Shown here in pieces: positions 1 through 48,504 of a stretch of 58,464 nt of DNA (the first letter of the stretch is position 1; each line of letters opens with the position of its first letter). Origin of the DNA: a virus; the IMG/VR virus record IMGVR_UViG_3300021400_000097. One strand, given 5' to 3'. Below the pieces are notes generated by a model. It was not told the origin of the DNA. It saw only the letters and a list, made by a program, of their open reading frames with translations, and did no database searches. Both the position numbers and the translations under genes were made by a program.

Positions 1-107
1 CCTCCCAGCCGATATTGGAACGCTTGCACCTGTAGATGGTATCGTCTGTGTATATATCCAGGTGGTGAACGGTCTTATTGCCAGCCTCAGTGAGATAGTA
101 GCCCCAG
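1..107. repeat. Exact 107-bp terminal duplication of the window (1-107 = 58358-58464). Assembly overlap of a circular or circularly permuted genome of 58,357 bp.
   Basis: Read directly: the first 107 nt are identical to the last 107 nt. The portal reading frame is continuous across the junction. Confidence 0.9.
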
Positions 108-8924: not shown

Positions 8925-9728
8925 TTATTTTCTACGGCTTTCACCGTGTAATTCTATTACGTTGAAACTCTTGAAACGATCCACCAGGCGATCCTCAAAA
9001 CGGCTTTTCAGATCTTTCACTGTTAGATTGCTTGTTATGTGGTAACGCTTATTGTACTGCTGGTAGATCTCATACCTGGCAAACAGGAACTCATCCGTAA
9101 CCTGTGTGAGTGTGGTACCAAAGCTCTTTTGTTTCTCAGTCATAAGCCCCAGGTCATTCAGGCATACGTTGAAAGGTGATCCCTCAAAGGCTTTCAGATC
9201 TGCCAGCTCATTGAACGTATAGCGGTCTATATGTCCGTTGATCTTGTAATAGTTCATTAGCTGTGTCATGCTGATGTTACGAAAGTAATTCTCGTTCTCT
9301 GTGATCCTCAGATAGTCTGAAAAGATCTGCATGATCATTGTCTTACCTGTTCCTGGCTCTCCGATCAGGAGGATGTTTTTGTGGATCTTGTAATCCTCAT
9401 CTGGGAAAACACTCTCTGCCAGCTTGCATCCGTTGAAATAGTACGTCAGGAACTTTAGCACCTTTTGGTTATGCTCATCAATCTGGTAGCCAGAAAACTC
9501 CCTCAGCATATAGTTGTCACCTATCCCTTTGATCAGCCCAGCGTGTATTCTGTATTCCTCAGGATCCTCCAGGTTGTACTTAAAACCTCTCAGTGTAATC
9601 TTTCTGTGTTTCAGTCGCTCCTGCTGTGCCCTTTCCTGTGTCAGCTTGAACTGCTGCTGTTGGTGATCCCTGATTATTTTCAGGGCATCCATTGTTGTCA
9701 TTTGCGCTTGCTTTCCGTTGATCTCCAT
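8925..9728 (-). CDS. DnaC/IstB-like AAA+ ATPase (helicase-loader candidate)
   Basis: 267 aa. Walker A LIGEPGTGKTM, Walker B-like CLNDLG. Downstream of the replisome-organizer gene. Confidence 0.65.
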   Translation of the reverse strand: MEINGKQAQMTTMDALKIIRDHQQQQFKLTQERAQQERLKHRKITLRGFKYNLEDPEEYRIHAGLIKGIGDNYMLREFSGYQIDEHNQKVLKFLTYYFNGCKLAESVFPDEDYKIHKNILLIGEPGTGKTMIMQIFSDYLRITENENYFRNISMTQLMNYYKINGHIDRYTFNELADLKAFEGSPFNVCLNDLGLMTEKQKSFGTTLTQVTDEFLFARYEIYQQYNKRYHITSNLTVKDLKSRFEDRLVDRFKSFNVIELHGESRRK

Positions 9729-10422
9729 ACTTTACTATTTCTTCATTGTAACGATCCACCACCCATGTAAGGATGGCTCTGTAATCACTCTTATAGCGTT
9801 TGCCCTTAGCTCCCTTATAGTTATCAAGGATCTCAATCATACGCTTTGTAGGATCCTCTCCATACTCCCCACAGAGCTTAGCGTACTCATCCCTGGTAAG
9901 GGTGACAAACTCAGCATATTTGTATTTCTTAGCCTTTGCAGCCTTTTCTGCTTGCTCCTTTGTCAGAGGTGGTGGAGTGTCAGCTGGAACATCCAGAGGG
10001 ATCACAGGCTCTGTCACCTTTGGCTTTCGTTCTACAGGCTTTCTGTCAAACACCTTAGTCTTTGTAGAGCTACCACCTTTCAAGCCAGCCTCACGTCTTT
10101 TCTGGCTTATCTCAGCGTCCCTTACCATCCTCCTACTGTAGATGGCTCCATCATCACGCACAGCACACACGCCTCCAATGATCAGGCGATCCAGCCAGGT
10201 ATCAGATCCAGAGGCATCATTACCCAGCATACGCAAAATCTCATCCTGGGTGTATATGTCACCGTTAGGCTTTACCATCACGCCACGCTCCACGCTCTCC
10301 CACATATAGCATAGCATATCCATCCATAATCCCCTTATGTCTGGAGGCAGCACTTTCAGCTCTGGGCATCTTAGCCAGTCTGCTGTGTCGAAAGGCATCA
10401 TCTGTTGTTTGTTCTTAGCCAT
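9580..10422 (-). CDS. Replication initiator / replisome organizer (DUF1376-like N-terminus, DnaD-like C-terminus)
   Basis: The track ORF (to 10635) has an implausible hydrophobic leader. The ATG at 10422 gives MAKNKQQMMPFDTADWLRCPELKVL, then YAEFVTLTRDEYAKLCGEYG...YKSDYRAILTWVVDRY. Its 3' end overlaps the next gene by 149 nt. Confidence 0.6.
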   Translation of the reverse strand: MAKNKQQMMPFDTADWLRCPELKVLPPDIRGLWMDMLCYMWESVERGVMVKPNGDIYTQDEILRMLGNDASGSDTWLDRLIIGGVCAVRDDGAIYSRRMVRDAEISQKRREAGLKGGSSTKTKVFDRKPVERKPKVTEPVIPLDVPADTPPPLTKEQAEKAAKAKKYKYAEFVTLTRDEYAKLCGEYGEDPTKRMIEILDNYKGAKGKRYKSDYRAILTWVVDRYNEEIVKYGDQRKASANDNNGCPENNQGSPTAAVQADTGKGTAGATETQKDYTERF

Positions 10423-10483
10423 ACTACTTGTTTTTAAGCCTGGAGGATAGGAGAGCCCCACCCTCCAGGGATTGACAGTGTTA

Positions 10484-11254
10484 TTATTTCTCCATGATAG
10501 CGATCTCTGGAGCGATCTCACGGATCTTACCCAGCACCTCATCAATGCAACTATCACGGTAAGCCTCCACAGCCTCATTAGCTCCAGGAGAAACCAGCTG
10601 GAGGAAACATTCACCATCAGCCAGGTAGTGATCAAACTCTACCACGATAGGTACCTTAGGAGTGCCCTTGAAGATAGCCAGGCTCAGTGTAAAGCTCTTA
10701 GGCAGGTTGCTCTCCACGGTCTGCTTGAATACATCAGCACGTGATCCACTCGGATCTTTCTGCTTTTGCACCTCACTGTTAGCCTTAGCAGTGAAATTCT
10801 TTAAGGCAGATACCAGTTTCATGCACTCCTCACGATCCTCAAAGAGGCTCCTGTTAAGACGCAGGAACTGTCCCAGGCGATCAGGGATCCAGGCATCCTT
10901 AGGATCGTTGATCTTTGTTTTCAGGAACACCTCAGTAAACTCAACGGTGCCTTTCACAACACCCTTTGAGTACTCATCATCCTCATTGGTTATCAGGGTG
11001 ATACTCATATCCTCACGGTTTACCAGGATGTGGGCTTTCTTCTGATCAATGGTGTTGATACGCTTTTCCAGCCAGTCGAAAGGAGTAGAGATCACACCAA
11101 CAATGTTAGTCTTAATCGGCTCCTTAGTAGGCAGTGGATTGGGTGCCTTTGCAGCCTCTCCCTTACGGATGATCACCTCAACAGGTTTTTCACCTGTATA
11201 GTTCTGGATGTTTACACATACGGATTTCTCCATGTTTGTCATTTCTTCTTGCAT
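10484..11254 (-). CDS. Hypothetical protein (256 aa)
   Basis: ATG-started ORF co-oriented within the early operon. Confidence 0.6.
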   Translation of the reverse strand: MQEEMTNMEKSVCVNIQNYTGEKPVEVIIRKGEAAKAPNPLPTKEPIKTNIVGVISTPFDWLEKRINTIDQKKAHILVNREDMSITLITNEDDEYSKGVVKGTVEFTEVFLKTKINDPKDAWIPDRLGQFLRLNRSLFEDREECMKLVSALKNFTAKANSEVQKQKDPSGSRADVFKQTVESNLPKSFTLSLAIFKGTPKVPIVVEFDHYLADGECFLQLVSPGANEAVEAYRDSCIDEVLGKIREIAPEIAIMEK

Positions 11255-11291
11255 AGTTGTACAATTTTGAAAGTTGATTATTGAATGTTAT

Positions 11292-11744
11292 TTATCCCTC
11301 AGTGCCAGTATTACGGATAGCCTGGAACACTGTGCGCTGTCTCTCCTCACGTGTCATATCACGGCTTTCTACCAGGTGTCCGTTGGTGTCATAGAAACCA
11401 ACCTTTCCAGCCTCCTCAAAGACGAACTTGAACGTGTCACCCTTGATCTGCTCACCACCAGCCTTGACCTCATCCAGGATCTCAGCCTGGCGTTCCTGGA
11501 GTGGCTTTAGCTTACCCTTGATGTCAGCTGTAAAGTTTTTCAGCTCCTCATTCAGCTCACCGATCTGGATTGCCACATTGCAAGCCTCAGCACGTTTCTC
11601 ATTCTTCTCATCCTCACCAAACTTTCTGGTGTAGAACTTTTCCACGATCTGATCACATGAATCCCTCAGGATCTGTTCTCTCTCCTCCATCGGAGTGTCT
11701 GCCAGCATCACGTCTGGCACACTTTGTACTTTTTCTTTTGCCAT
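11292..11744 (-). CDS. Hypothetical acidic coiled-coil protein (150 aa)
   Basis: ATG-started ORF, immediately downstream of the second DGR target gene. Confidence 0.55.
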   Translation of the reverse strand: MAKEKVQSVPDVMLADTPMEEREQILRDSCDQIVEKFYTRKFGEDEKNEKRAEACNVAIQIGELNEELKNFTADIKGKLKPLQERQAEILDEVKAGGEQIKGDTFKFVFEEAGKVGFYDTNGHLVESRDMTREERQRTVFQAIRNTGTEG

Positions 11745-11756
11745 AATTCACTTAGT

Positions 11757-12395
11757 TTATTTGTTGAAATAAAAATCTCCCACAGTAAAATTGAATGCCA
11801 GGTACTCAGCCCAGAGCTTGATAAACTGCTGACCAAAGTAGATAGCTTTTTCTTCTGTTTCCTGGCACAAGCGGAACCCAAAAGGCGCACACGCATTCGA
11901 GGAACGATAATGCGCACTCAGAGAACCGAAACCAGCACCCGCACCATTATCCGCAACCGCAGACAGGAGGGCACCATTGAACTGATCTTTACGATCCTCT
12001 ATCTCCTGTTTAGTCCACAGAGCAAACCAGGGGTACCACATAGTGGTGCTGCCCTCAGCATCAGGCTTAGGCTCCCAGTTCTTTCCCCAGAGGGCACGGC
12101 TGATAGTTTCCAGCTTAATAAGAGCCTTGATGTGGTCTGGCATTGTCATGGGGATGCTACCTACATTCGGATCAGCAGATAACTCCACCATTGCCAGGGT
12201 GTCAAAGTTCATGGGCTTGCAACCCAGGGCTACACAGGCATCCTCATAGGTCTTGATAGACTTGTAATCATCCAGGTTAGGCTTTTTCTCAGGCTTGCAG
12301 AAAAGAGCTGCCAGCACGTCTTTCACCTCCTGAGACTTAGCAACCTCCAGAGCTGCCTTAACCTCTACCTCAGTAACGATAATTTGCTTACTCAT
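11757..12395 (-). CDS. Second (remote) DGR target protein, 212 aa, with an internal variable region
   Basis: Residues GALLSAVADNGAGAGFGSLSAHYRSSNACAPFGFRLC are encoded by VR2, which matches the TR at 25673-25778 except at template adenines. A 35-aa tail follows the VR. Confidence 0.8.
   Translation of the reverse strand: MSKQIIVTEVEVKAALEVAKSQEVKDVLAALFCKPEKKPNLDDYKSIKTYEDACVALGCKPMNFDTLAMVELSADPNVGSIPMTMPDHIKALIKLETISRALWGKNWEPKPDAEGSTTMWYPWFALWTKQEIEDRKDQFNGALLSAVADNGAGAGFGSLSAHYRSSNACAPFGFRLCQETEEKAIYFGQQFIKLWAEYLAFNFTVGDFYFNK
11864..11975 (-). repeat. DGR variable region 2 (VR2)
   Basis: The core 11870-11975 aligns base for base with TR 25673-25778 (106 bp). There are 14 mismatches, all where the TR has T on the + strand (A on the coding strand). 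The 3' end shares the TTGTGCC variant with VR1. Confidence 0.85.
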
Positions 12396-12533
12396 TTTTC
12401 TAATTCTTTTAGTGTATTCAATTTCTTTATGATCTTTCTCACGATACGGATTGCATTCTGTACTCTCAGGCTCTGGCCTGGTGGTACGCTGTCTATGATT
12501 ACTGGTACCAACCGTATCAACTCTGATACCAGG

Positions 12534-12980
12534 TTATTTGCTATTAGTTTCATCGGCTCTCAGCATCCAGTATTTATCAGGATCAGGTATTTTCACATTC
12601 AAGTACTCATCAGCGTACTGCCTCAGCTTTTCGCAATAGGTGGAGAAAGTAACGGTGTCCATCTTTGCAGTTGATGATGGAAACTTGATGATCTCACCTG
12701 TCTCTCTGTTCACAACCTCATCAGCTGTCATCTGTGCCTTGAAAAACTCATGGATCTGTTCCACGCTTGTAAACTCCCAGCCAGCATCTATCATTGCATC
12801 CAGCAGCATAGGGTAGATACATCCCCACAGCCATCCGTTCTGATCGTTGGATCTGGGCTTACGCACTTTCTTTACCTCTACCAGGTAAATTCCATCCAGA
12901 GCCTGTACAAACCACACATAGAGCTTATTCAGGTTAAAGAGGCCGTTAGCCTTTTCTATGATCACCTTAGCGTTACTCAT
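12534..12980 (-). CDS. NinB/Orf-like recombination mediator candidate
   Basis: The ATG at 12980 (MSNAKVII) overlaps the upstream stop by 8 nt. The motif RSNDQNGWLWGCIY resembles the NinB family signature. Confidence 0.5.
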   Translation of the reverse strand: MSNAKVIIEKANGLFNLNKLYVWFVQALDGIYLVEVKKVRKPRSNDQNGWLWGCIYPMLLDAMIDAGWEFTSVEQIHEFFKAQMTADEVVNRETGEIIKFPSSTAKMDTVTFSTYCEKLRQYADEYLNVKIPDPDKYWMLRADETNSK

Positions 12981-13338
12981 CGTACAGCTCCATCTGTTTT
13001 CTGAGTGCAACACTTACCTGGTGGATAGCACCCTCACGGCTCTCCAGGGATGCTATATACTCAGCCATTTCCCTTTTCGTTGTGGCTATGTAGTAGCCCT
13101 CGGAGGTAGCGATCACTCCAGGCAGCAGGGCATTCACCCTGATATGGTTTATCACTTTGCGCAACCTGGCATTGTCAATCTTATAGCCAGCTAAACGCAT
13201 CTTAGCACAGATCTCACTGTTTTTGATAGCACGGTCTTTGCCGATCTTCATAGACAGTCCACGTACAATCTGGGGGGTGAGCGTGTTAAGCTCATACTCA
13301 GATAGAGGCTTAGTTTCATTTGTAAATCCGTTAATCAT
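12973..13338 (-). CDS. Hypothetical protein, possibly winged-helix DNA-binding (121 aa)
   Basis: ATG-started ORF. The functional guess comes only from the helix pattern. Confidence 0.5.
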   Translation of the reverse strand: MINGFTNETKPLSEYELNTLTPQIVRGLSMKIGKDRAIKNSEICAKMRLAGYKIDNARLRKVINHIRVNALLPGVIATSEGYYIATTKREMAEYIASLESREGAIHQVSVALRKQMELYDE

Positions 13339-13343
13339 AATTC

Positions 13344-14069
13344 CTATAGCTTATTTAACTCAACTGTCAAACCTGGGAAAGCAGCATAGGTGGGCTTACC
13401 TGTGAGAGCTTGTATTTCGCTCACAAAACGCTCCTCATCGGCATTGTTTCCTGACAGGTGGATCAGCACCACCTCAGCCACTTTCGACAGGTCATTACGG
13501 CTAAGAAAAGATTTCGTTGATGCAAACTCCAGGTGTGACTTTGCCAGACGTGCCACCTGGCTCTCATCGGTACGGTGCTCCTCGATAGCACGTCTGAGGG
13601 CATCCACAGAGTAGTTACATTCGATCAGTACATGATTGAGCCCTGGAATGGTGTAGTCAAGCTCACAGGTATCTGTAGCAAACATCAGCAGCCCCATATC
13701 TGGATGCTGGATCAGATAGCCAACACATGGTACATCGTGTGACACATTGAAAGGCATTACCAGGAAATTGCCCATCTGGTACGTCTTACCACTTTCCGCT
13801 GTCACAGCATGGGTACCAGAGTAACCCTTTGCCATCCATACCTCAGGCAGTGCCAGGGTGTGGAAAAGATCAGCGTACTTTGTTATGTGCCCAGCATGAT
13901 CATTGTGCTGGTGGGTAACGATACATCCTGAGACTTTACGGATGTTGAACTTTAGGGCTTTCTTAGCCTCTTTGACGTTCACGCCACACTCCAGGATCAG
14001 AGCCTCATTTCCATTATCCAGGATGTAACCGTTACCCTTGCTTGAACTACCTAATACTGTCAGCGTCAT
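13344..14069 (-). CDS. Metallo-beta-lactamase-fold hydrolase (likely the nuclease partner of RecT)
   Basis: 241 aa with the HxHxDH motif (VTHQHNDHAGH). Adjacent to the recT-like gene. Confidence 0.7.
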   Translation of the reverse strand: MTLTVLGSSSKGNGYILDNGNEALILECGVNVKEAKKALKFNIRKVSGCIVTHQHNDHAGHITKYADLFHTLALPEVWMAKGYSGTHAVTAESGKTYQMGNFLVMPFNVSHDVPCVGYLIQHPDMGLLMFATDTCELDYTIPGLNHVLIECNYSVDALRRAIEEHRTDESQVARLAKSHLEFASTKSFLSRNDLSKVAEVVLIHLSGNNADEERFVSEIQALTGKPTYAAFPGLTVELNKL

Positions 14070-14080
14070 AGCAGCACGTT

Positions 14081-15067
14081 TTAATATCCAGGATTAGGAG
14101 CACTGGCTGGAGCTGGTTGGCTTGTTGCAGCCTCACCGATCTGCACAGCACCCTCGCTACTCATTGTAAGCTGTTTCTGATCATCCTTAACCTCTGTAGC
14201 ATCAGCCCACTCCTCGCTACGCATATCATCAGCGATAGCAGTTTGCATTTCTACAGACAGGTAGCCGAACTTGCTCAGCAGATTCCTTACCACGGTCTTA
14301 ACACCCATAGAGTGGAAATTACCCAGCCAGCCTACTGTCTTATTATCGTCTGTAGATACTGGCAGATCTGCCAGGGCTTTCAGCTGATCCACTGTAACCT
14401 CCTTTTTCAGCCCCTTAGAGTACCGCTTAGCATGGTTAGCCATCTGATCCACTGTCATGTACAGCGTCTTAGCAAATCCGTTAAGCAGCTCAAAGTAGCA
14501 GAAATAACCGATCACCTTATCGGATTTCTTTTCACCATCAAAGGCGATCTCTCCAGTGAGCTTGCTTACCTTACGCACCTCACCATCATAGACTACATCA
14601 GCATTGAGGGTACGATACTGGCCTGTACGCATAGCCAACTGGATATATCCTTTGTAGCCCAGCTGGAAAGTAGGCTCCAGCTTTTTCTCCCAGATCTTCT
14701 TACCATCCTGTCCGATCATGTCACGTCCATACTCATCCTTTTTCGGATAGCTGTTAGAGTAAGGGATGATATAGGCGAATCCCAGGGACTTATTGATAGG
14801 CAGGTGGAGCACAGCAGCTTTCAGAGCCTCCATAACCACCTGGTTAGGATTACACTCTCTCAGCTTACTGTCTGAGTTGAAAAGATCTATCACTGAGGCA
14901 ATGAATGTGTCAGCATTCTTACCCAGGGCATTCTTGAACTGTTCCTTAACGCTGTCTGTACTAAGTACATTTTTCAGTGCCAGCGTCTTAGGATTCACTT
15001 TAGGCTCAACAGCACCGCCATTTGCTGGTGCTGGAGCTTGTACATTGGTTTGCTTATTGTCTGCCAT
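14081..15067 (-). CDS. recT: RecT-family single-strand annealing protein
   Basis: 328 aa. The region NPNQVVMEALKAAVLHLPINKSLGFAYIIPY is typical of RecT (from memory of the family). Lies in the recombination module. Confidence 0.7.
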   Translation of the reverse strand: MADNKQTNVQAPAPANGGAVEPKVNPKTLALKNVLSTDSVKEQFKNALGKNADTFIASVIDLFNSDSKLRECNPNQVVMEALKAAVLHLPINKSLGFAYIIPYSNSYPKKDEYGRDMIGQDGKKIWEKKLEPTFQLGYKGYIQLAMRTGQYRTLNADVVYDGEVRKVSKLTGEIAFDGEKKSDKVIGYFCYFELLNGFAKTLYMTVDQMANHAKRYSKGLKKEVTVDQLKALADLPVSTDDNKTVGWLGNFHSMGVKTVVRNLLSKFGYLSVEMQTAIADDMRSEEWADATEVKDDQKQLTMSSEGAVQIGEAATSQPAPASAPNPGY

Positions 15068-15072
15068 AGTTG

Positions 15073-17379
15073 TTATTGAATTGAAAGTTGTTTATCAGTT
15101 GTAACACACAGGAGGATCTTCTGGCTGGATGTTTCCATCACATTGTTCACGCTCTCAGCGTTATCCACGAAAATAGGAGCATTCACGCCCTGGGACTTGC
15201 ATATTGCATTGATAATATCCAAGCCAGCGTTGATCTTACCAGCGTTATTCACATCAGGATATGGTGTACCGTTCACTGTGCATACACAGGTTAGCTTTTC
15301 ACCACCATTGAGCTGTGACGATACGAAAGAGAAAGAAACGAGCTTGAAAAGGTCATTGATACGTCTCAGCAGCTCAGCATCCTTAGCTTTCTGGAACTGG
15401 AGGCATTCAAACTCCCATTTCTCCAGATCTGCCACTTTCTCATTGAGTTTATCCCTTTGCTCCTCCAGCTCCTTGATTTCCTTATTGGCACGATCCAGGA
15501 TAGCCTTTTGTCCTAAACGCTGGTTGATGGTAGCGATCTCACCATTGATACGCTCCTTATCGGCTTTGGCAGCAGAGTTATCTGCCTCAGGCTGATCACC
15601 AGCAGGATCCTTGATCACGCTCAGCTGGTTTTGCAGTTCTGTGATCTCATTTGCCAGTCCGATCAGTACCTCATCCTTTTTCTCTATCTCCAGATAGTCA
15701 GGAGTTGGTATAACAGCAGCTGTGATACTGTCACGCTCTGCCTGGGTGGTCTGGATCTCCTTACTGATACGCTGGTACTCAGCATCCTCAGAGAGGGCTT
15801 TGTTATAGTCAGGAACAGCAGGAACACTTGCACGTGCTGATACCAGATCCCTGTTGAGCTCTGTTAGCTCATTCTCAGAGTTGGTAATATCGCTGTCAGC
15901 CTGTTTCAGCTTATCATCCTTATCCTGGAGTGTCTTACGCTGTCTCTCCAGGGTGGTGTTGAGGTTATCCAGCTTTTCCCTGGTAGCCTTACCCTTTTCC
16001 TGGTTAGCCTTGATTCTCTCAGCCTTTTGGCTGTTGAAATTAGCCTCCAGTTCCTGACGCTTTGCCTCCAGATCATCCATATCCAGCGGACGCTTACAGG
16101 TAGGACAAACCATCTGGGCAGGATCCATGATAAACTCCTCAGCATAGATCTTTTGGAACTCAGAGCGCAGATCAGTGATCTCACCCTCCTTTTCCTTGAT
16201 GGTAGCCTCTGTGTCACTCACATTTTTCTGGGCATCGAGCACATCAGCCTCCAGGCTACTCTTATTGCCTTTGAGACGGTTGATCTCCTCTTGCTTAGCC
16301 TTGATCTTTGCCTCCAGGTCTGCCACTTTCTTTTTGGCATCCTCATAGGAACTGCCAATAGCCAGCTTAACCTCACCCTCACGCTTGATCAGTTCAGCTT
16401 TCTTATCGTTGATCTTACGTGTGTACTCATTACGCTGTGATGCAGCAGCATTCTCAGCCTCCTGGATGTCAGCATTACGCTTTTTGTCTGCCTCCAGGCG
16501 CAAAGCGTTCTTACGGTTGCTCTCCTCCAGTTTCTTGCTGTTGATCTGTGTCTGGAGAGAGTTACGCTTTTCGTACACCTCAGCATTCTGGGCTGATCTG
16601 TCATTAGCCAGGATAGCATCCACCTTTTCCAGCTCCTGTTTCTTAGCCTCCAGGTCTTTCTCCAGGGCATCCCAATCATCATCGGCTGGTTTCAGTTTGG
16701 CAGCAGTCTCTATCTTTGTAGGAATCAGAGAAAGCTCCTCGTTACAGGCACTTTTCTTAGCCTTAATCTCCTTAGCCATTTCCATGATAGTAGTACCCTC
16801 CAAAGCAGCCAGGAACTCAGCATACTCAGGTTTCAGACGTGCCACATCCTCATCAGTGACGTTGCCAGCCATATTCTGGAGCATTTCTTTCTGATCCTCT
16901 GGTTTCAGTGATGGAAAATAGAAAGGGTTGGTGATCATACGAAACACATTCTCTGGAATGATGGAGCTGATCTTTGCATCATACTCACGCTTTGTAGGGA
17001 TCTTTACATCATTCACGTAGAAAAGCGTCTCATGGTTTTTCAGTACCTCAGTGGTGGTGCCTGTAGGCTTTTCCCACTTTTCACGATACATACGCTTTAG
17101 TTTAAGCTCTTTCCCATCAACATCCAGGATAGCTGTCACAGAGTGCTCCTGTTTCAGGATAGGATCACCATGTGCATCCAGTGTCTTGATGTTGAAATTG
17201 GAATCGGATCTGTTAGTGCTATCCTTACCGAACAGCAGCCACGTAAAGGCATCAAAGACAGTGGTCTTACCAGTGCCATTGTCACCTCTTACCATTGTGG
17301 TACCTGGATTGAAAGAAAGCTCAACGTCACGTGCTCCCTTGAAATTCACCAGGTGTAGATTCTTTAGAATAATTCCCAT
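15073..17379 (-). CDS. SbcC/Rad50-like AAA ATPase with a long coiled coil and a zinc hook
   Basis: 768 aa. N-terminal Walker A GDNGTGKTTVFDAF, a very long Glu/Lys-rich coiled coil, a central CPTCKRP hook, and a C-terminal signature region. Confidence 0.75.
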   Translation of the reverse strand: MGIILKNLHLVNFKGARDVELSFNPGTTMVRGDNGTGKTTVFDAFTWLLFGKDSTNRSDSNFNIKTLDAHGDPILKQEHSVTAILDVDGKELKLKRMYREKWEKPTGTTTEVLKNHETLFYVNDVKIPTKREYDAKISSIIPENVFRMITNPFYFPSLKPEDQKEMLQNMAGNVTDEDVARLKPEYAEFLAALEGTTIMEMAKEIKAKKSACNEELSLIPTKIETAAKLKPADDDWDALEKDLEAKKQELEKVDAILANDRSAQNAEVYEKRNSLQTQINSKKLEESNRKNALRLEADKKRNADIQEAENAAASQRNEYTRKINDKKAELIKREGEVKLAIGSSYEDAKKKVADLEAKIKAKQEEINRLKGNKSSLEADVLDAQKNVSDTEATIKEKEGEITDLRSEFQKIYAEEFIMDPAQMVCPTCKRPLDMDDLEAKRQELEANFNSQKAERIKANQEKGKATREKLDNLNTTLERQRKTLQDKDDKLKQADSDITNSENELTELNRDLVSARASVPAVPDYNKALSEDAEYQRISKEIQTTQAERDSITAAVIPTPDYLEIEKKDEVLIGLANEITELQNQLSVIKDPAGDQPEADNSAAKADKERINGEIATINQRLGQKAILDRANKEIKELEEQRDKLNEKVADLEKWEFECLQFQKAKDAELLRRINDLFKLVSFSFVSSQLNGGEKLTCVCTVNGTPYPDVNNAGKINAGLDIINAICKSQGVNAPIFVDNAESVNNVMETSSQKILLCVTTDKQLSIQ

Positions 17380-19670: not shown

Positions 19671-19777
19671 TTCTTTCCCCACACCCCTATTTCATATACA
19701 CATTCTTTCTCTTTTATATATTTTCTCTTATTCTTATTATATATAATATATATACCCCCAGATAACTTACATTTAAT

Positions 19778-20070
19778 TTTGCTTAGGCAAACGGCTTTTT
19801 TTGCTTAGGCAAAATGAAAAAAATTAGTCTTGATTATCAGATAGTTATGATTTTTGCTTAGGCAAACGGCTTTTTTTGCTTAGGCAAAATAAATTTTGCT
19901 TAGGCAAAAGTGCAAGCAAAACGTAAGCAAAATGGTAAGCAAAATTAAAGCAAAATACGTTTGCTTAGGCAAATTAGAAATTTTGCTTAGGCAAAATGAA
20001 AAATTTGCTATCTGATTATTAGATACTTACAAAATTTGCTTAGGCAAAACATTATTTTTGCTTAGGCAAA
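19778..20070. repeat. Array of 9 exact, same-orientation copies of TTTGCTTAGGCAAA, plus 4 phased AAGCAAAA half-sites
   Basis: 12-mer cores start at 19779, 19801, 19854, 19876, 19896, 19961, 19983, 20036 and 20058 (spacings 22-53-22-20-65-22-53-22). Half-sites at 19914, 19925, 19937 and 19948. The last copy lies inside the 3' end of int. Confidence 0.85.
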
Positions 20071-21323
20071 ATTGGATCCTTGAAACACCTCTTTATCTTC
20101 ACCAGGTTAAGAACTTTCCTGTTGGCTTTATCTATAGGATCCCAGCTCTTTCTGATATAGGTATCTGTGATCTTCGTCTCATCATCCACATGGTTGAGGG
20201 CTGTGTGTACAGTCCACTTATCCACTCCAGCATCATTCTGTGCTATGGTTGCCCAGGTGTGTCTGGCAGAATAGAAATCCAGCTTATCCATCCCCAGATC
20301 CTCAGCAATCTTTTTCATGCCATAACCGATAGCCTTATGTATGGTGCTCATAGAGGAATACATCCTGTAGAACTTGAACACTCTCTTACCAGACGGATCT
20401 CTGTACTTATCAACCAGCTCCTGGATCTCAGGCTGGATCTTGATGGAGATCCTGGCACGATCAGCCCTCCTGTTTTTGGTTTTGGTACGCTCATAGGTGA
20501 TCCTACCTCCTTTGCAGTCCTCGCAGTAGTACATATCCACCAGATTCATTCCCACCAGTCCAAAGCTCAGTATAAACAGATCCAGGGCAAAGTTGTACCT
20601 GTTAGTGTTAGGGTACTGGCTGGTGATGTAAGGCAGATCCAGCAGCTTTCTCATCTGTTCCAGGGTAAGAGCCCTTTTCTCTGGCACTGGCTCCTTTGGC
20701 AGATCTATATGTGAGAAAGGAGAGTTTGGGATCCTGATCACTCCAGCATCCTCATCATTGAACTCCTTTTTTGCCATGTTATGAATTGCCCTCAGCTTTG
20801 AAAGATAGTTGTGAGGCGCAAACCCTTTCGTGCATCTACCCTTATCCAGGATCCAGTCAGCCCATGATCGGAGCATCTTAACAGTCACCTCCTTAATGCT
20901 AACCTTATCCCTACCCAGGAACTTGATAAGGCTGTTTATAGCCACCAGGTAGGTCTGGGCGTTACCATCATGCCCTGTTTCCTGGAGCCTCCTGATATGC
21001 TGCCTGGTGTACTCGACAATATCCAGATCCCAGTGCTCCTCCAGAGGCTTTTCAATGAAAGCCACCACCTCATCAACGGTCATACCCTTAATCCTGGTAC
21101 CCAGCTGATCACACCTGTAGCGGTACTGCCTGATAAGATCCTCTGTCATATCAATGTACCTCTGGTTTTTCAGTTTCAGTGATCTGGTAAGATCATCCTT
21201 TGTCACGTACCAGGGAGTAGCCAGGTATCTCTTACGCTGGTTTTGCGTTACTCTGATCTTGATGTTATAAGTGCCATCAGCCTTTTTCTGATGGGCATAC
21301 ACCTCTGCCTTGAATGTTGCCAT
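20052..21323 (-). CDS. int: Tyrosine recombinase / phage integrase
   Basis: 423 aa. The C-terminal catalytic region has SARHTWATIA and LNHVDDETKITDTYI. SAM-like N-terminal domain. Confidence 0.85.
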   Translation of the reverse strand: MATFKAEVYAHQKKADGTYNIKIRVTQNQRKRYLATPWYVTKDDLTRSLKLKNQRYIDMTEDLIRQYRYRCDQLGTRIKGMTVDEVVAFIEKPLEEHWDLDIVEYTRQHIRRLQETGHDGNAQTYLVAINSLIKFLGRDKVSIKEVTVKMLRSWADWILDKGRCTKGFAPHNYLSKLRAIHNMAKKEFNDEDAGVIRIPNSPFSHIDLPKEPVPEKRALTLEQMRKLLDLPYITSQYPNTNRYNFALDLFILSFGLVGMNLVDMYYCEDCKGGRITYERTKTKNRRADRARISIKIQPEIQELVDKYRDPSGKRVFKFYRMYSSMSTIHKAIGYGMKKIAEDLGMDKLDFYSARHTWATIAQNDAGVDKWTVHTALNHVDDETKITDTYIRKSWDPIDKANRKVLNLVKIKRCFKDPILPKQK

Positions 21324-22982: not shown

Positions 22983-23579
22983 TCAGCTATTCATTTTGTG
23001 ATAAAAGTCAAGTTTGATCCTATCATACACAGCCTGGACGTTGGTATAGCTCCTCCCATTGTTCTGCTTATCGGAATAAACCTCAGCCTCCACAACATCA
23101 GCCACCCAGTCCAGCCATTCAGGAGAGGTATATGATGAAAGCCTCTTACCCCTGTAGGTGTAATAGTCGAAACGGCTATTACGATCCTCATGCAAGTTGA
23201 TCAGCAGGGTACGGATCTTTTTCCTGGTACCCTCCCTATCCACAATGTGGTTTTCCTCACGTACCTTTTTTATTATACGGCATACCTTTTCAACAGCATA
23301 GTCAAAGTAGATACTGGACGTGTTTTTGATACGCAGCTGTGTTTCAGGTCGCAACCCCTCTGAAATGTCTGCCAGCATCTGGTTTTGGCTTTTCGTTTCC
23401 TCCAGCAGCTCATTCATTGTGGTTTTGTTGCTAACCAGCATATCATTGATGATGTTCTTAAACCATCTGAAACAGGCGATCATAAGTGCAGCAGCCAGTA
23501 CCAGGAAAAATGCAGCCGTAACTGCCATCATTCCTACATCGCCTATTGTCCTGGCTGTTTCCAAGCTATGCTCAACCAT
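22983..23579 (-). CDS. Single-pass membrane protein (holin-position candidate)
   Basis: The ATG at 23579 (MVEHSLETARTIGDVGMMAVTAAFFLVLAAALMIACF) overlaps the upstream stop by 8 nt. The longer track ORF is unlikely. Confidence 0.5.
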   Translation of the reverse strand: MVEHSLETARTIGDVGMMAVTAAFFLVLAAALMIACFRWFKNIINDMLVSNKTTMNELLEETKSQNQMLADISEGLRPETQLRIKNTSSIYFDYAVEKVCRIIKKVREENHIVDREGTRKKIRTLLINLHEDRNSRFDYYTYRGKRLSSYTSPEWLDWVADVVEAEVYSDKQNNGRSYTNVQAVYDRIKLDFYHKMNS

Positions 23580-23970
23580 TTCTTTGTCTTTTCCATTTAT
23601 TGCGCTTGTATGATTCAAAGTTTTCCCTATCCTCCTGGGTGATCTCCACTGATGGAGGGAATACCCTGAAACCATACATAGTGCCATATTTAACTACTTT
23701 GATTACAGCTCTCATGGGATAGTGTCTGCCAGGATTGGCAAATACATCTTTCACTTTCTTGCTGTCAGTGAAGAAAGCAGACTTACCATAACCCTCACCA
23801 TAAGCGATCAGGCATCTGGATCCGTTCTCTGTCTGCCTCTCTGGATCACACCCTGTAAACACCGTTACCTGGTTGATAACAGCATCAATGGATGTAAACT
23901 CACAGTCGAAAATGTCAGCTTTGCCCTGGCTTACACTATCATCCACAAAATCAACGATCTCCTGTGCCAT
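23572..23970 (-). CDS. Hypothetical protein (132 aa)
   Basis: ATG start overlapping the upstream stop (TAATG). Confidence 0.55.
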   Translation of the reverse strand: MAQEIVDFVDDSVSQGKADIFDCEFTSIDAVINQVTVFTGCDPERQTENGSRCLIAYGEGYGKSAFFTDSKKVKDVFANPGRHYPMRAVIKVVKYGTMYGFRVFPPSVEITQEDRENFESYKRNKWKRQRNG

Positions 23971-24395
23971 TACTCTACCTCTTTAAGATCCTTGCAATCC
24001 TCATCCACCATAGCACGCAGATCCAGCCTCTCATGGAGGAAAGCAATATAAGGAGCCTTAGCATCCTCAGGCAGCAGTCCAAGTACAGCACTGTTGTACT
24101 CGTTCTGTAGCTTGCTCTCAGTGTTGGCTGGGTACTTAGCGGTAAGCAGCGTAGAATAGATGTTATCGGCAGTCTTTGGATATTCAACCCTCAGGCTGTC
24201 ATACTGCCACATGGTACCTGTAGCTTTCTCTGGATCGTCAGTAACAGTGATGTTGCCATCCTTATCCACGATCACCAGCACCTCCTTGATATTGTGATTG
24301 TAATGGATGGTGCCCTGGCCGTTATTCAGATCTTTGAATACTTCTGGCTTTTCGTTTGCCAGCAGGCCAATAAATAATACTTTACTTTTTTCCAT
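23970..24395 (-). CDS. Hypothetical acidic protein (141 aa)
   Basis: Its ATG start overlaps the 3' end of the RT gene by 14 nt. Confidence 0.55.
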   Translation of the reverse strand: MEKSKVLFIGLLANEKPEVFKDLNNGQGTIHYNHNIKEVLVIVDKDGNITVTDDPEKATGTMWQYDSLRVEYPKTADNIYSTLLTAKYPANTESKLQNEYNSAVLGLLPEDAKAPYIAFLHERLDLRAMVDEDCKDLKEVE

Positions 24396-25515
24396 TGCTT
24401 AAACATTTATTAAATATGAAATCACTGTGCTCCTTATCACATCTGATTATCCAGCCATACTCAGACGGAAACAGGTGCTTAATATCATCCTCATTACTGA
24501 TCTGGTATTTCTCCTTTGTCTTTTCCAGCTTTTTGTAGAATCTCAGCAGAATCCCCTTTCTCAGGAGTATTCCGTAATGATCCTGTTTGAATCCAACATA
24601 GTCTATACCACGATCATCAACTGGGAATATCTGCCAGTTCGGTTTGATCTCCACCTTTAGCACTGATCCCAGATAGAGCCCTAAGGCATCCAGGACGTAG
24701 TGCAGCCATTCCTTGCTCTCTCCCAGCACCACTATATCATCCATGTATCTGTAGTAGTACTTAACGCCCAGCTCCTCCTTTACCCAGTGGTCGAAATATG
24801 CCAGGTACAGATTAGCCAGGTACTGGCTGGTGAAATTGCCTATTGGCAGTCCTTTTTCCTTACCGTTGCTATCAATTATCTTATCCAACAGCCTCAGCAA
24901 ACTCTCATCGGCTATGCTATAGCGGATGATCTGTTTCAGCACTGAGTGATCCACATTGTCATAGAACTTTCGGATGTCGATTTTCAGGCAGTACCTGGTA
25001 CCGATCCGATCTTCTATCAGAGCCCTGTGTACATCCTCCATACATTTGTGGGTACCACGCCCTTTGATGCAAGCGTATGTGTTCGCTATGAATATGTGGT
25101 ACCAGTGAGGAGCCAGCACATTGATGATACAGTGGTGTATCACCCTGTCTGGAAAGAAAGGAGCTATCATTATATCCCTCTCCTTAGGATCAAAGATCTT
25201 TTTAGTCCTATATATTCCAGGCTCAAAGGTTTCCTCACTCAGGATCTCATACAGGGTAGCCAAGCAATCATTCAAATTGTCATTGAACGCCTTTACCTCA
25301 CCTCTGTTCTTTTTGCCCTTTTGGGCTGTGTACTGAGACTTGATCAGGTTTTCGGTACTATATACCAGCGGATATACATTCTTGATCTTCTTTACAGGAG
25401 AAATATAGATCTTTCCTGTGTTTCCGATATAGTAGCCTACATCCTCAAAATCATGGTACATTACAGAGACGTTATACTGGTTGGCATCAACTTTGGCTTT
25501 CTTCTTTTTCTCCAT
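24382..25515 (-). CDS. DGR reverse transcriptase
   Basis: The track ORF starts at a TTG (25533). The first ATG is at 25515 (MEKKKKAKV). RT motifs include YRYMDDIVVLG (YxDD) and the DGR-typical LPIGNFTSQYLANLYL. The TR lies immediately upstream. Confidence 0.9.
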   Translation of the reverse strand: MEKKKKAKVDANQYNVSVMYHDFEDVGYYIGNTGKIYISPVKKIKNVYPLVYSTENLIKSQYTAQKGKKNRGEVKAFNDNLNDCLATLYEILSEETFEPGIYRTKKIFDPKERDIMIAPFFPDRVIHHCIINVLAPHWYHIFIANTYACIKGRGTHKCMEDVHRALIEDRIGTRYCLKIDIRKFYDNVDHSVLKQIIRYSIADESLLRLLDKIIDSNGKEKGLPIGNFTSQYLANLYLAYFDHWVKEELGVKYYYRYMDDIVVLGESKEWLHYVLDALGLYLGSVLKVEIKPNWQIFPVDDRGIDYVGFKQDHYGILLRKGILLRFYKKLEKTKEKYQISNEDDIKHLFPSEYGWIIRCDKEHSDFIFNKCLSNGKK

Positions 25516-25662
25516 TTGTGTGCCGTTGCTCAATCAGGAGCTTTCAATTACTTACTCACACCTTACTGAATCACTATTGTTTTACCAACTGCCAGCAGTG
25601 CCAGCAGTCCCTGTGAGGTAGGGTTGCAGAGGTCTAACAGTTATTCTTGTTTTCAAGGAAAA

Positions 25663-25778
25663 CCACGGTAAAAGCGGAACCCAATATTCGCATTCGCATT
25701 CGAGGAACGATTATTCGCATTCAGATAACCGAAACCAGCATTCGCACCATTATTCGCATTCGCAGACAGGAGGGCACC
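25663..25778 (-). repeat. DGR template repeat (TR)
   Basis: Noncoding. The core 25673-25778 is co-linear with VR1 and VR2. The coding strand carries 22 adenines arranged as 10 AAT plus TAT plus ATT in the target reading frame. Confidence 0.9.
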
Positions 25779-25886
25779 TGACCTTGCAACCTTTTATTTT
25801 ATATTTTCAAAGAACTCTCTTTTTGAAAGGTGGGGAGGCAGCTTTTAGAAAAGCCACCGCCCACCGTGTTTTGCAGTCGTGGCGTT

Positions 25887-27239
25887 TCACCCACGGCACA
25901 AGCGGAACCCAATAGTCGCATACGCATTCGAGGAACGAGCATTCGCATACAGAGAACCGAAACCAGCAGACGCACCATCAAGCGCAACCGCAGACAGGAG
26001 GGCACCATACCACCCAGAGGGTGATGGGTACCAGTAGTAGTCACATACGCCCTCATTGGCAGCTCCACCAACCTTATCAATGAATGAGTAGCCCTTATGG
26101 TTGTGAGACATTGTAAGTCCATAGCCAGATGCCAGAGGCAGCTCAGATGCCAGCTCATAGCCAGCTGGAACGGTTGTAGCACTGTCAGAGTGAGAGGTGA
26201 ACTTAGTAGGATCCTCACATACGTAAGCCTCAGAAACACCCTCCTTATGCCAGATCAGTACATCGTCTGCCAGCATCGTGAGATATTCAAAAGGCACCTC
26301 CAAACCACGGTAAGATGTAACCTGGATGGTCTTATCATTACCAGAGTTTGCCCAGTTCTTGATCACGTAGGAAACCTTACCAGTGTTGTTACCCAGTGTG
26401 GCAGTAACACCACATGGAACGAAAGGATTGTAGCCGTTGTGGGTGTTCCACTCACCACCATTCACAGAACATCCGCTACCCAGGCCTCCCTGGTGGAAAC
26501 CGTCAGCTGTCAGTGTTGTGGTGTATGTGTCCTGGCAGTCCATAGAGGCATATTCAACCCTCTGGAGCCATGCAATTTCATTGTACACCCTGTAAGCTCC
26601 ATGATGGATGCCGTTGCCAGCAGCGTTGCACCATCCACGCACGGTATTCTTATTGACAGATGTACGTGCCATACCTACAAAGCTCCTGTAGGTACCATCG
26701 TAAGATGCAGATCCGTTACCACCCCTGAATCTGGCAGCATTCTCTGTAAAGACAGGCAAACCGTTTGCATCCCTGGCAATTTCGTTGCCATTCCAGGTAA
26801 GCCAGCAGCCACAGACAGGCTTTTTCAGCTGATCATCGTAGGTACCAAAGGTGAAAGAGATTGCCTTACGCTCCATCTTGATAAAGCCAGGCAGCGGATA
26901 TTCAGAGTAAGCCCTGAGCCACTTAGTACCCTCAAATTCCATACGGAAATAGTACTCAGGCTTTTCAAGCATTACGTTACCATCGGTACTGTCAATGATG
27001 GCAGCAGCACCAGAATCCCTTTTACGGCTGTCATTCTGTCCGAGGTAGTACTTAACGGATCCATCCTCATTCTCGACAAAGCGTCTGAGCTTTTGCTGGA
27101 TGGGTAAGGTACGGTGCAGATCCAGATTGCCAACCCTGGTAAGGTGACGATCCCTGCTTGTAAAATCACCCTGTACGCCATACCACATATCGTAAGGGTA
27201 TTGTGGCTTAGATGAGCCACTTCCTAAAAGCATTCCCAT
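25887..27239 (-). CDS. DGR target protein 1 (tail-module, receptor-binding candidate) with a C-terminal variable region
   Basis: The ATG at 27239 (MGMLLGSG) lies 4 nt after the upstream stop. The track start at 27290 overlaps that gene. The C-terminus GALLSAVALDGASAGFGSLYANARSSNAYATIGFRLCRG is encoded by VR1. Confidence 0.85.
   Translation of the reverse strand: MGMLLGSGSSKPQYPYDMWYGVQGDFTSRDRHLTRVGNLDLHRTLPIQQKLRRFVENEDGSVKYYLGQNDSRKRDSGAAAIIDSTDGNVMLEKPEYYFRMEFEGTKWLRAYSEYPLPGFIKMERKAISFTFGTYDDQLKKPVCGCWLTWNGNEIARDANGLPVFTENAARFRGGNGSASYDGTYRSFVGMARTSVNKNTVRGWCNAAGNGIHHGAYRVYNEIAWLQRVEYASMDCQDTYTTTLTADGFHQGGLGSGCSVNGGEWNTHNGYNPFVPCGVTATLGNNTGKVSYVIKNWANSGNDKTIQVTSYRGLEVPFEYLTMLADDVLIWHKEGVSEAYVCEDPTKFTSHSDSATTVPAGYELASELPLASGYGLTMSHNHKGYSFIDKVGGAANEGVCDYYWYPSPSGWYGALLSAVALDGASAGFGSLYANARSSNAYATIGFRLCRG
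25890..26006 (-). repeat. DGR variable region 1 (VR1)
   Basis: The core 25901-26006 compared with TR 25673-25778 (106 bp) has 13 mismatches, all at TR adenines on the coding strand. It ends at the stop codon of the target gene. Confidence 0.9.
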
Positions 27240-27243
27240 AGCT

Positions 27244-27537
27244 TTACTGTTTAATTGATTCACCAGCTCCCCAGTAAACATCGTAGTCACTCAGCGATAT
27301 AGCGTCTGGGGAAATTTCCACTATAGCAGCTGGTGTCCAGTCACCTACAGGCACTGGAAAATCACTGGCCTCTTTGTCACAGAGACACTTACACTGAATG
27401 ATAGTGTTCTGTTCCATTGAGGGCTTTTTAGGCCTCACGAAAACAGAGAAAGGAACTCCTCCGTTCAGTTTGAAACCATTTGTGAGTTCTGTTATTTGTC
27501 CTTTGGATAGGATCCTCAGGCTGTACATTTCGTTCAT
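27244..27537 (-). CDS. Hypothetical protein (97 aa)
   Basis: ATG-started ORF. First gene after the promoter at 27567. Confidence 0.5.
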   Translation of the reverse strand: MNEMYSLRILSKGQITELTNGFKLNGGVPFSVFVRPKKPSMEQNTIIQCKCLCDKEASDFPVPVGDWTPAAIVEISPDAISLSDYDVYWGAGESIKQ

Positions 27538-27735: not shown

Positions 27736-28218
27736 TTATTCTGATTTCTCTGTAAGCCTCTTTAGAGCAACCTCCAGGCTGTTGATTTTATCCCTGATGG
27801 ACTGCCTGGATGTATGGAGATCCTGGGCATTGTAAGGCATAGCCTCACCGATCAGGAAAGCCTCATAGCATTTGATCACTTTGTAATCTGTATTATCAAG
27901 CTCCTCTTTGAGTGCCTTGATCTGGTTTTTGTAATAAGCCAGATTCTGGATCTTCTCATAGGTATAGCCTATGTGATCATCGTACTCCACAGCAACAATC
28001 CTGATAGCATAGCCAGGATCACACTCCAGCTTGCTCTCATCAATCATATCAACTGGTTTCCATCCTGATTTAGTGAGCTCCTGGATCTGTTCATCCACAG
28101 TGATTATCCTCTCCTGGATGGTAGGCTTATCATCCTTAACCACCTGGATCCTTTCCGTGCGCTGGACTATCTCCTGTGTCCTGAGCACACCATCCTCAAT
28201 AATTCCGTACCAAACCAT
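27736..28218 (-). CDS. Hypothetical protein (160 aa), downstream of the tail-fibre gene
   Basis: ATG start 3 nt after the stop of the 1970-aa gene. Confidence 0.55.
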   Translation of the reverse strand: MVWYGIIEDGVLRTQEIVQRTERIQVVKDDKPTIQERIITVDEQIQELTKSGWKPVDMIDESKLECDPGYAIRIVAVEYDDHIGYTYEKIQNLAYYKNQIKALKEELDNTDYKVIKCYEAFLIGEAMPYNAQDLHTSRQSIRDKINSLEVALKRLTEKSE

Positions 28219-47370: not shown

Positions 47371-47444
47371 GCACAAATTTACCACGTAAATTAGTTAAAA
47401 AAAGTTATAAATATATTCACCAGGTAAATTTTTAATGATTTTCC

Positions 47445-47495
47445 TTTGTTATTTCGGAAATAGTATGTACTTTTGCAATGTGTTTGACAGACACA
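47445..47495 (+). promoter_or_regulatory. Rightward promoter A of the accessory island
   Basis: TTTG (47445-48), inverted repeat TATTTC-G-GAAATA (47450-62), -7 box TActTTTG (47468-75), then palindrome TGTGTT-N5-gACACA (47479-95). Confidence 0.55.
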
Positions 47496-47503
47496 CCAAA
47501 ATA

Positions 47504-47914
47504 ATGCAACACCAATTAAATTTTCAGATTATGACACAGAAAGAGTTTTTTGATCGCACAGGTATTGAACTTACAGAGGATCAATACAAGCAGGTAGAGG
47601 CAATGTACCTGGAGGCTGGTAACATGGATAAGGATGAGTTCTGCAAGGATTACAAAAAGCACCATGAGAGCACGCTGCTTGCTACCTATTTCAGACAGGC
47701 TGAAAACCTGAAAAACAAGCTGGATGATATGAGAAACGAAAGATCCATCCTGGTTGATTTCCTCCTGGAGAGAGCACAGTGCTTTGGTGATATTGAGCTG
47801 CTTAACAAAGCTATTGAGCTGGTAGGGCATGATAAGGTGATTAAACGTAAGATCAGACTGGGTATGCCACTGTGGGATGAGGATAAGGAATATATTGTAG
47901 AAAACATTAAATAA
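47504..47914 (+). CDS. Hypothetical protein
   Basis: The track ORF starts at 47435, inside the promoter. Plausible ATG starts are 47504 (MQHQLNF) and 47531 (MTQKEFF). Confidence 0.55.
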   Translation: MQHQLNFQIMTQKEFFDRTGIELTEDQYKQVEAMYLEAGNMDKDEFCKDYKKHHESTLLATYFRQAENLKNKLDDMRNERSILVDFLLERAQCFGDIELLNKAIELVGHDKVIKRKIRLGMPLWDEDKEYIVENIK

Positions 47915-47927
47915 GGAGGATCAAGTT

Positions 47928-48320: not shown

Positions 48321-48321
48321 T

Positions 48322-48483: not shown

Positions 48484-48504
48484 CCCATTAAATGCAACAC
48501 TGAT

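Follow-up and report, generated by a model that had tools for sequence, protein, structure and literature searches.

Diversity-generating retroelements (DGRs) rely on a reverse transcriptase (RT) that copies the RNA of a template repeat (TR) into cDNA and misreads adenines; this cDNA then takes the place of homologous sequence in a variable region (VR), and the transfer stops at a 3' boundary, the initiation of mutagenic homing (IMH) element, which is not the same in VR and TR. The DGR of Bordetella phage BPP-1 has a single target that adjoins the cassette and carries its VR at the C-terminus, with a hairpin downstream; an Avd gene is also present. VRs are located at the C-terminus, a placement attributed to a requirement for cis-acting DNA elements that coding does not constrain (Roux 2021, PMC8144416). 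A second, non-structural DGR target, called without precedent, was reported in Quimbyvirus, in which both target proteins contain C-type lectin domains and the second one is encoded on the strand opposite the structural module (Benler 2021, Microbiome 9:78, PMC8008677). A second VR at a distal site was also described in four Bacteroidota prophage species, and the arrangement was read as part of a phage-host arms race (Dahlman 2025, Nature 647:698, PMC12629997). The present analysis concerns such a second target in the IMG/VR record IMGVR_UViG_3300021400_000097, a DNA stretch of 58,464 nucleotides (hereafter, the window) from a temperate, gut Bacteroides-type phage of a Versailles-like lineage. 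It contains one TR, one DGR-type RT, and two VRs, namely VR1 in a tail-type target gene (T1) and VR2 in a small gene (T2, 11757–12395, minus strand). VR2 is almost certainly a functional DGR target that is currently being diversified.

Template Repeat, Reverse Transcriptase, and VR2

A repeat search of the window returned a 121-nt repeat in three copies (11860–11980, 25663–25783, and 25891–26011). The middle copy, which is rich in adenine and lies just upstream of the RT gene, is the TR (25674–25778, minus strand; translation GALLSANANNGANAGFGYLNANNRSSNANANIGFR). When each adenine of the TR was replaced by N, the resulting pattern of 83 specified bases matched solely at 11871–11975 (VR2 core), at the TR itself, and at 25902–26006 (VR1 core), in each case on the minus strand and with 0 mismatches, against a chance expectation of 0. 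The 105-nt core of VR2 agrees with the TR at every one of the 83 non-adenine positions and is changed at 14 of the 22 adenine positions. Over 110 nt, VR2 and the TR differ at 16 positions, 15 of which are TR adenines (23 adenines in 110 nt; hypergeometric P = 6e-12), and the sole non-adenine change is a T>G in codon 176. VR1 has 15 mismatches to the TR over 110 nt, including 14 at adenines. The gap between the TR and VR2 is 13,683 bp.

Hallmarks of a DGR are seen in the window. TR/VR differences fall almost entirely on TR adenines (15/16 in VR2 and 14/15 in VR1), and the RT, a single open reading frame (ORF; 24382–25533, minus strand) that matches PF00078 (E 4e-18) and phrog_1423 (E 1e-122), carries IGNFTSQ and YMDD in its translation. 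A [LIV]GxxxSQ motif is the mark of DGR-type RTs; the RT domain here combines a motif of this type with a YxDD motif. The 3' end of the RT gene is overlapped by an ORF of 141 aa (23970–24395, minus strand) that belongs to phrog_11557 (no known function) and is kept in phage Versailles; it could be a divergent accessory factor. A preliminary description of the window, made from its letters, had proposed a second VR with 14 core mismatches that all fall on template adenines and differ from those of VR1, in a 212-aa gene that is on the RT strand, is 13.7 kb away from the TR, and continues for 35 residues beyond the VR; the exact pattern match and the coordinates bear out each of these points.

Twelve codons of VR2 are hypervariable (11880–11957, minus strand; residues 147, 149, 150, 153, 158, 160, 162, 163, 167, 169, 171, and 172). 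Their counterparts in the TR are 10 AAT, one TAT, and one ATT codon, which correspond to ~9e12–1e13 possible proteins. The 3' boundary of VR2 is formed by a 16-nt IMH-like element (11864–11879, minus strand) that reads GGGTTCCGCTTGTGCC in the VRs and GGGTTCCGCTTTTACC at the same place in the TR. A T>G and an A>G difference from the TR are common to VR1 and VR2 at this boundary (CTTGTGCC in both VRs vs. CTTTTACC in the TR), and the element is kept in 25 diverse loci. Codons 176 (Leu) and 177 (Cys) are essentially invariant in the homologs although TR codon 177 has an adenine, which indicates that the transfer from the TR ends just upstream. Judged from its sequence, the boundary is an IMH/IMH*-type asymmetry that would give one-way homing.

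C177 is followed by a C-terminal extension of 35 codons (11760–11864, minus strand; Q178–K212, QETEEK...FYFNK), and therefore any downstream cis-acting sequence of VR2 must lie within coding DNA. The internal position had been called unusual at the outset, in agreement with the C-terminal location of VRs in the survey of Roux (2021, PMC8144416). The canonical layout of a DGR target, i.e., a VR at the extreme C-terminus and a non-coding stem-loop downstream, was found for VR1 but not for VR2. The stop codon of T1 is two codons after VR1, and the downstream stem-loop is strong (z = -3.9). Two stem-loops are present there on the minus strand, a strong GC-rich terminator-like hairpin at 25829–25865 and a small stem at 25876–25895 that abuts the boundary element. 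The small stem is CGTGG/CCACG in the window and CCGT/ACGG in ~17/19 relatives; because it is invariant in the relatives, covariation supports neither side.

Diversification of VR2 in Related Genomes

For T2, 3177 homologs were found, and the reading frame is intact in thousands of homologs. Entropy was computed over the 120 closest homologs, and the 12 residues of highest entropy are exactly the codons with a TR adenine at position 1 or 2. These 12 codons have a mean entropy of 2.96 bits, compared with 0.27 bits for the remaining VR codons and 0.74 bits for T2 outside the VR. The closest IMG/VR relative (L005, 92% amino acid identity) differs from the window at 14/22 TR-adenine sites, 0/83 non-adenine VR sites, and 19/534 sites in the remainder of the gene. 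Both targets are also present in 13 further IMG/VR genomes, in which VR2 matches the TR of the same genome and almost all mismatches are at adenines (for example, 7/7, 9/9, 15/15, and 12/12). The non-adenine VR positions equal the genome's own TR in 11/14 genomes and nearly so in the remaining three. The same arrangement of TR, VR1, and VR2 is present in Versailles and LoVEphage, and all 17 of the VR2 mismatches in LoVEphage are at adenines of its own TR (17/17). Diversification of VR2 was thus seen in every lineage examined, and both VRs vary at the population level in an adenine-restricted manner.

These comparisons bear on an alternative explanation of VR2 as a decaying or passive copy, that is, an unused duplicated VR or a stretch homogenized by recombination without a selected function. 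Such a copy might be suspected because no hairpin was found downstream of VR2 and because the fraction of mutated adenine sites is lower in VR2 (0.50) than in VR1 (0.62). The intact frame, the agreement of the non-adenine positions with each genome's own TR, the 64% of adenine sites vs. 0% of non-adenine sites that differ in the closest relative, and the strong conservation of the T2 scaffold and C-terminal extension in the alignments all argue against it, and a decaying copy is very improbable. The preliminary description would have taken VR2 for a dead relic had it been invariant across related genomes; it is variable in these genomes, with the variation concentrated in the TR-adenine codons, and thus is not a relic.

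Family and Properties of the T2 Protein

T2 encodes a protein of 212 aa in phrog_11581 (no known function; E 1.5e-67, residues 4–206 of 212). It has no match in Pfam, NCBIfam, or PADLOC, and a Pfam search with 62 family members also returned none. When 1.84 billion cluster representatives were searched with a profile, 907 family clusters (50% identity) were obtained at E <= 1e-3, and the best 150 of these 907 consist almost entirely of stand-alone proteins of ~200 aa and shorter fragments. Reference genomes that carry family members belong to Bacteroides, Phocaeicola, Prevotella/Segatella, Parabacteroides, Alistipes, Muribaculaceae, Barnesiella, and Rikenellaceae, and include a few metagenome-assembled genomes of Clostridia; the family is found mainly in temperate Bacteroidales phages. 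The highest 19-residue hydropathy value of T2 is 0.94, its N-terminus is hydrophilic, its isoelectric point is 5.2, and no hydrophobic segment of transmembrane grade was found in it. T2 is accordingly predicted to be soluble, without a membrane-spanning segment.

Motifs shared across the family include IKTxEDAC..LG, a long helix with KL..I..AL, YYPWF, the VR end G(F/S)RLC, and the C-terminal ELAxYxGKQFIxLWAD. Since this last motif is conserved family-wide, the 35-residue stretch behind the VR is regarded as part of the T2 fold. Structure prediction with AlphaFold2 (AF2) was run with 28 close homologs (mean predicted local distance difference test, pLDDT, of 53) and again with 68 more diverse sequences; two helices are predicted after the VR (181–190 and 192–199). 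Foldseek comparison of the model with BFVD returned uncharacterized phage proteins only, the two strongest being 44–47% identical to T2. Profile searches against PDB with the T2 family alignments A3 and A5 and with T1 gave chance matches only. The C-type lectin domains reported for the Quimbyvirus targets were not reproduced for the T2 family by Pfam, PDB profiles, or Foldseek with a model in which the VR has low confidence, and T2 may still have such a fold.

A mosaic segment (12138–12224, minus strand; residues 58–86) is a second variable region of T2, of recombination type rather than DGR type. It is predicted to form a beta-hairpin (strands 69–71 and 81–83), and three alternative, unrelated cassettes occupy it among otherwise near-identical homologs: GCKPMNFDTLAMVELSADPNVGSIPMTMPD, DISPIYSDNAVKAVCVNINQHWDYRQEMPK, and a form that is 13 residues shorter. 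Some relatives deviate from the common stand-alone form. In one (P0187), the whole domain is duplicated in tandem, and others have N-terminal extensions; a Pfam search of these longer proteins, including the tandem duplicate, gave nothing above threshold. The N-terminal extension of P0252 has a sub-threshold match (19.9 bits, cut-off 25) to Tad2-like proteins of Thoeris anti-defense, which is the sole lead from T2 to any known defense or anti-defense family. Several relatives (P0170, P0185, and P0198) lack the AAY-type hypervariable pattern in the stretch equivalent to the VR and may not be diversified.

Relation of T2 to the Tail Target

T1 (25887–27290, minus strand) encodes a tail-type protein of 467 aa that matches phrog_5302, "tail protein" (E 1e-109), and carries VR1 at its extreme C-terminus. 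T1 and T2 share just the 38-aa VR, with 74% identity (BLASTP, T2 residues 141–178). Alignment of the two family profiles by hhalign recovered these 38 columns at 98% probability and the upstream scaffolds at below 1%. T2 itself is matched by phrog_5302 at residues 127–178 (E 1.7e-6), and its likeness to this family does not extend beyond the VR. In GenBank, the Versailles homolog of T2 is labeled "tail protein"; the shared VR is the simplest explanation for both this label and the phrog_5302 match. The label is probably an annotation artifact that could propagate to other records, and it is best treated as such for the T2 family.

The VR1–VR2 similarity at doubly mutated adenine sites is 0.394 within genomes and 0.344 across genomes (permutation P = 0.16). 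As VR1–VR2 pairs from a single genome are no more alike than pairs from different genomes, the two sites diversify independently. A common ligand for VR1 and VR2, which a raised within-genome likeness would have suggested, is not indicated by these data.

The relation to T1 raises the possibility that T2 is a virion or adsorption protein, perhaps a small accessory protein for receptor binding or decoration, which is encoded outside the structural module and diversified for the recognition of host surfaces. The VR that it has in common with the tail protein, the GenBank label of the Versailles homolog, and the phrog_5302 match are consistent with this possibility, as is the fact that most known phage DGR targets are tail proteins (PMC8144416). 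However, the likeness to the tail protein is limited to the VR, the scaffolds are unrelated, no tail-attachment domain was found in the 212 aa of T2, and the two VRs do not resemble each other more closely within a genome. The place of T2 in a recombination/replication block is kept across distant lineages, the LoVEphage homolog lies far from the tail genes amid methyltransferase and other non-structural genes, and the second target of Quimbyvirus is on the strand opposite the structural genes (Benler 2021, PMC8008677). A virion role for T2 is therefore considered unlikely.

Gene Neighborhood and Possible Role of T2

Upstream of T2, a minus-strand block (12534–17379) encodes an SbcC-like ATPase (15073–17379), RecT (14081–15067), an adjoining metallo-beta-lactamase (MBL)-fold hydrolase (13344–14069), and NinB/Orf (12534–13013; phrog_72, E 3e-22), with an ORF of 121 aa on the same strand between the hydrolase and NinB/Orf. 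Downstream of T2 are, in order, two genes of unknown function, a replisome organizer (9580–10635; phrog_13246, E 2e-78), a DnaC-like loader, a pyrophosphatase, and a ParB-like gene. The early-type placement of T2 within a recombination/replication block, from NinB to the replisome organizer and outside the virion genes, thus agrees with the preliminary description, with the addition that the two genes of unknown function precede the organizer. Versailles has the same upstream order, followed by the T2 homolog. In three distant family members (L014, L015, and L016; 30–34% identical to T2), which are in prophages flanked by an integrase, the T2 homolog directly follows AAA_23/SbcC-like, RecT, and MBL hydrolase genes. 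Their MBL hydrolases are 41–49% identical to that of the window, and their downstream genes are unrelated. The MBL-fold hydrolase is probably a nuclease of the recombination module. It may, less probably, act as a cyclic-nucleotide phosphodiesterase; a sub-threshold match to the anti-Pycsar protein Apyc1 (22.6 bits, cut-off 50) was obtained for it, and the same faint match recurs in the distant syntenic copies. A promoter/terminator scan around T2 returned nothing above chance, using a sigma-70 consensus that is unsuited to Bacteroidota.

These results suggest that the single DGR of this phage actively serves VR2 as a remote (trans) target and that T2 is an intracellular, non-virion early binder, an explanation that is given a probability of roughly 70% as a whole. 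Following established DGR biology, the TR RNA would be reverse-transcribed with misincorporation at adenines and the cDNA would replace each VR in trans; 12 codons of T2 would be randomized and the remainder of the protein conserved. Its gene context indicates that T2 may be expressed alongside the genes for recombination and replication and may act as a variable intracellular binder, the variable surface of which would recognize a variable macromolecule of the host or of a rival phage. T2 itself is reasonably likely to be non-structural, because the SbcC-like/RecT/MBL synteny is kept even in members with 30–34% identity, no segment of transmembrane grade is present, the homology to tail proteins is limited to the VR, and the second target of Quimbyvirus was read in the same way (Benler 2021, PMC8008677). 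Counter-defense or host takeover through the binding of host factors is the favored, though tentative, suggestion for its role; the binding of host factors or defense proteins that the preliminary description proposed is plausible.

Several observations weigh against this explanation. A downstream hairpin promotes homing in Bordetella phage BPP-1, and none was detectable at VR2: the 96 nt downstream fold no better than shuffled sequences (z = -0.17), and no conserved helix was found there across the 25 diverse loci (-4.4 kcal/mol). Either the 16-nt boundary element is sufficient or another, undetected feature replaces the hairpin. An Avd accessory gene was not recognized, as the ORFs flanking the RT (23970–24395, 23572–23970, 27244–27537, and 27736–28218) had no match in Pfam, NCBIfam, or PDB. 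The AF2 model from 68 sequences has a mean pLDDT of 71 and a predicted template modeling score (pTM) of 0.62, with pLDDT <50 over residues 140–172, and Foldseek with this low-confidence model found nothing in PDB at E below 2. PADLOC returned no match for T2, its neighbors, or the N-terminally extended relatives. The neighborhood of the LoVEphage homolog is different and includes methyltransferases, an RtcB tRNA ligase, radical-SAM genes, and a nuclease. The downstream neighbors of T2 are not homologous between lineages, and the upstream MBL hydrolase is the only neighbor that is; T2 therefore has no fixed partner gene. Lastly, the "early" and "non-virion" status of T2 is read from gene order alone.

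The temperate nature of the phage, which has an integrase gene at 20052–21323, leads to another alternative. T2 might be a prophage sensor or exclusion factor that recognizes proteins of competing phages and functions in the defense of the lysogen rather than in counter-defense, and cellular DGR targets have indeed been linked to putative defense and signaling systems (PMC8008677, PMC12629997). However, T2 is located within a lytic early operon, shares the strand and position of the recombination genes, and is not beside a repressor or the integrase. Moreover, no effector domain is fused or adjacent to T2, and the absence of PADLOC matches for T2 and its neighbors also speaks against this alternative, which is quite unlikely.

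Within the preferred explanation, in which T2 is an intracellular binder, a more specific proposal can be formulated, although it is speculative and rather doubtful. The T2 family would be a structurally unclassified DGR scaffold of ~200 aa, rich in helices, with an internal VR that is capped by a conserved C-terminal helical hairpin. It would act as an intracellular programmable binder tied to the recombination module (SbcC-like/RecT/MBL), e.g., by neutralizing variable host nucleases or defense sensors that attack recombination/replication intermediates, and retrohoming into VR2 would need just the 16-nt IMH-like element and no hairpin.

DGRs of phages are usually explained as tools for receptor switching, and an intracellular second target, if true, implies that targeted hypermutation is directed at something inside the cell. 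The T2 family is large (907 clusters) and is without any domain annotation. An internal VR that lacks a hairpin bears on the cis elements that retrohoming needs and is relevant to DGR-based protein engineering. Because a cultured relative is available (phage Versailles, host B. caecimuris), the role of non-structural DGR targets is directly testable. The size of this unannotated family, its conserved link to a recombination module, the internal hairpin-less VR, and the cultured relative make T2 worth following up.

Other Features of the Genome

A perfect direct repeat of 107 bp is present at the termini of the window (1–107 = 58358–58464), from which it follows that the assembly is circularly redundant and that the window covers a complete phage genome of 58,357 bp. 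Beside the integrase gene, a 60-nt repeat unit is present in four copies (19756–20072), each with two TTTGCTTAGGCAAA palindromes; these repeats may represent arm-type or attP sites, or else operators. An ORF block at 47435–53935 is on the plus strand, opposed to the otherwise minus-strand genome. Versailles also has an opposite-strand block, which holds an ADP-ribosylglycohydrolase and a DNA methyltransferase; by analogy with it, the block of the window may be a moron or counter-defense island. A megablast search of positions 9000–15000 against GenBank phages gave no match, and relatives turned up at the protein level only.

Comparison With Known Systems

A counterpart of T2 in a named phage is WAK79127.1 of Versailles (ON453897; ON453897.1 10181–10762, corresponding to L001 5986–6567), which is 63% identical to T2 and occupies the same syntenic place between NinB and the replisome organizer. 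Its residues 124–160 match the TR and VR1 of Versailles itself, and the overall genome layout is as in the window. WAK79127.1 differs from T2 in its length (193 aa) and in having the short form of the mosaic segment.

A more distant homolog, QVQ57199.1 of LoVEphage, has 35–37% identity to T2 over 92% of its length, and similar homologs were found by tblastn in the PV4-TP1 and BI-TP1 records. Both QVQ57199.1 and T2 are stand-alone proteins of ~200 aa in which the VR is followed by a conserved C-terminal extension. In each case, the VR belongs to the TR of the phage itself, that TR has a further target in the tail module, and the gene is far from the RT among non-structural genes. From the fit of its neighborhood (methyltransferases and RtcB), QVQ57199.1 appears to be the second target described in Quimbyvirus by Benler (2021, PMC8008677). 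In contrast, the lineage analyzed here has a Versailles-like genome of 58.4 kb, compared with 71–75 kb in Quimbyvirus and LoVEphage. Its VR sequence is different from that of LoVEphage and co-evolves with its own TR, and the neighborhood of T2 is an SbcC-like/RecT/MBL/NinB and replisome-organizer block. Furthermore, the RT is a single ORF in the window, whereas that of Quimbyvirus was reported in three overlapping frames (Benler 2021, PMC8008677). A VR accompanied by a TR elsewhere and by a tail-module target, the combination that defines this family of second targets, was found in the window, Versailles, LoVEphage, and the 13 IMG/VR genomes.

The prophage species of Dahlman (2025, PMC12629997) and the window share a layout in which a single RT/TR cassette is combined with a tail target and, distal to the cassette, a second VR. 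In those species, the second VR is near counter-defense genes such as a DNA methyltransferase (PMC12629997), whereas the nearest genes here are for recombination and replication. Two targets per TR are also known from the Bacuni phages of B. uniformis (PMC8143477), in which one of them is distant from the RT, and from the "tentaclin" phages (PMC10743442). Unlike the small T2 of the early block, those targets were read as adhesion or receptor-binding proteins (DUF1566/fimbrial-tip-like proteins and tentaclins, respectively).

Compared with BPP-1, in which the target is the Mtd tail fiber, the window shows the same adenine-specific transfer from TR to VR, a DGR-type RT, an asymmetric IMH/IMH*-like 3' boundary, and TR codons rich in AAY. 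Unlike BPP-1, it has a second target 13.7 kb away with an internal VR, no hairpin was detected at VR2, and no Avd gene was recognized.

The preliminary description had considered such a second diversified function to be undescribed. For the phenomenon as such, this did not hold, since the homolog of T2 in LoVEphage is a VR of its own TR and fits the report of Benler (2021, PMC8008677), and Dahlman (2025, PMC12629997) described second VRs likewise. The finding is a known phenomenon in a different, Versailles-like phage lineage, to which the present locus adds a 38-aa VR as the sole overlap of the two targets, an internal VR2 without a recognizable hairpin, and the independent diversification of VR1 and VR2.

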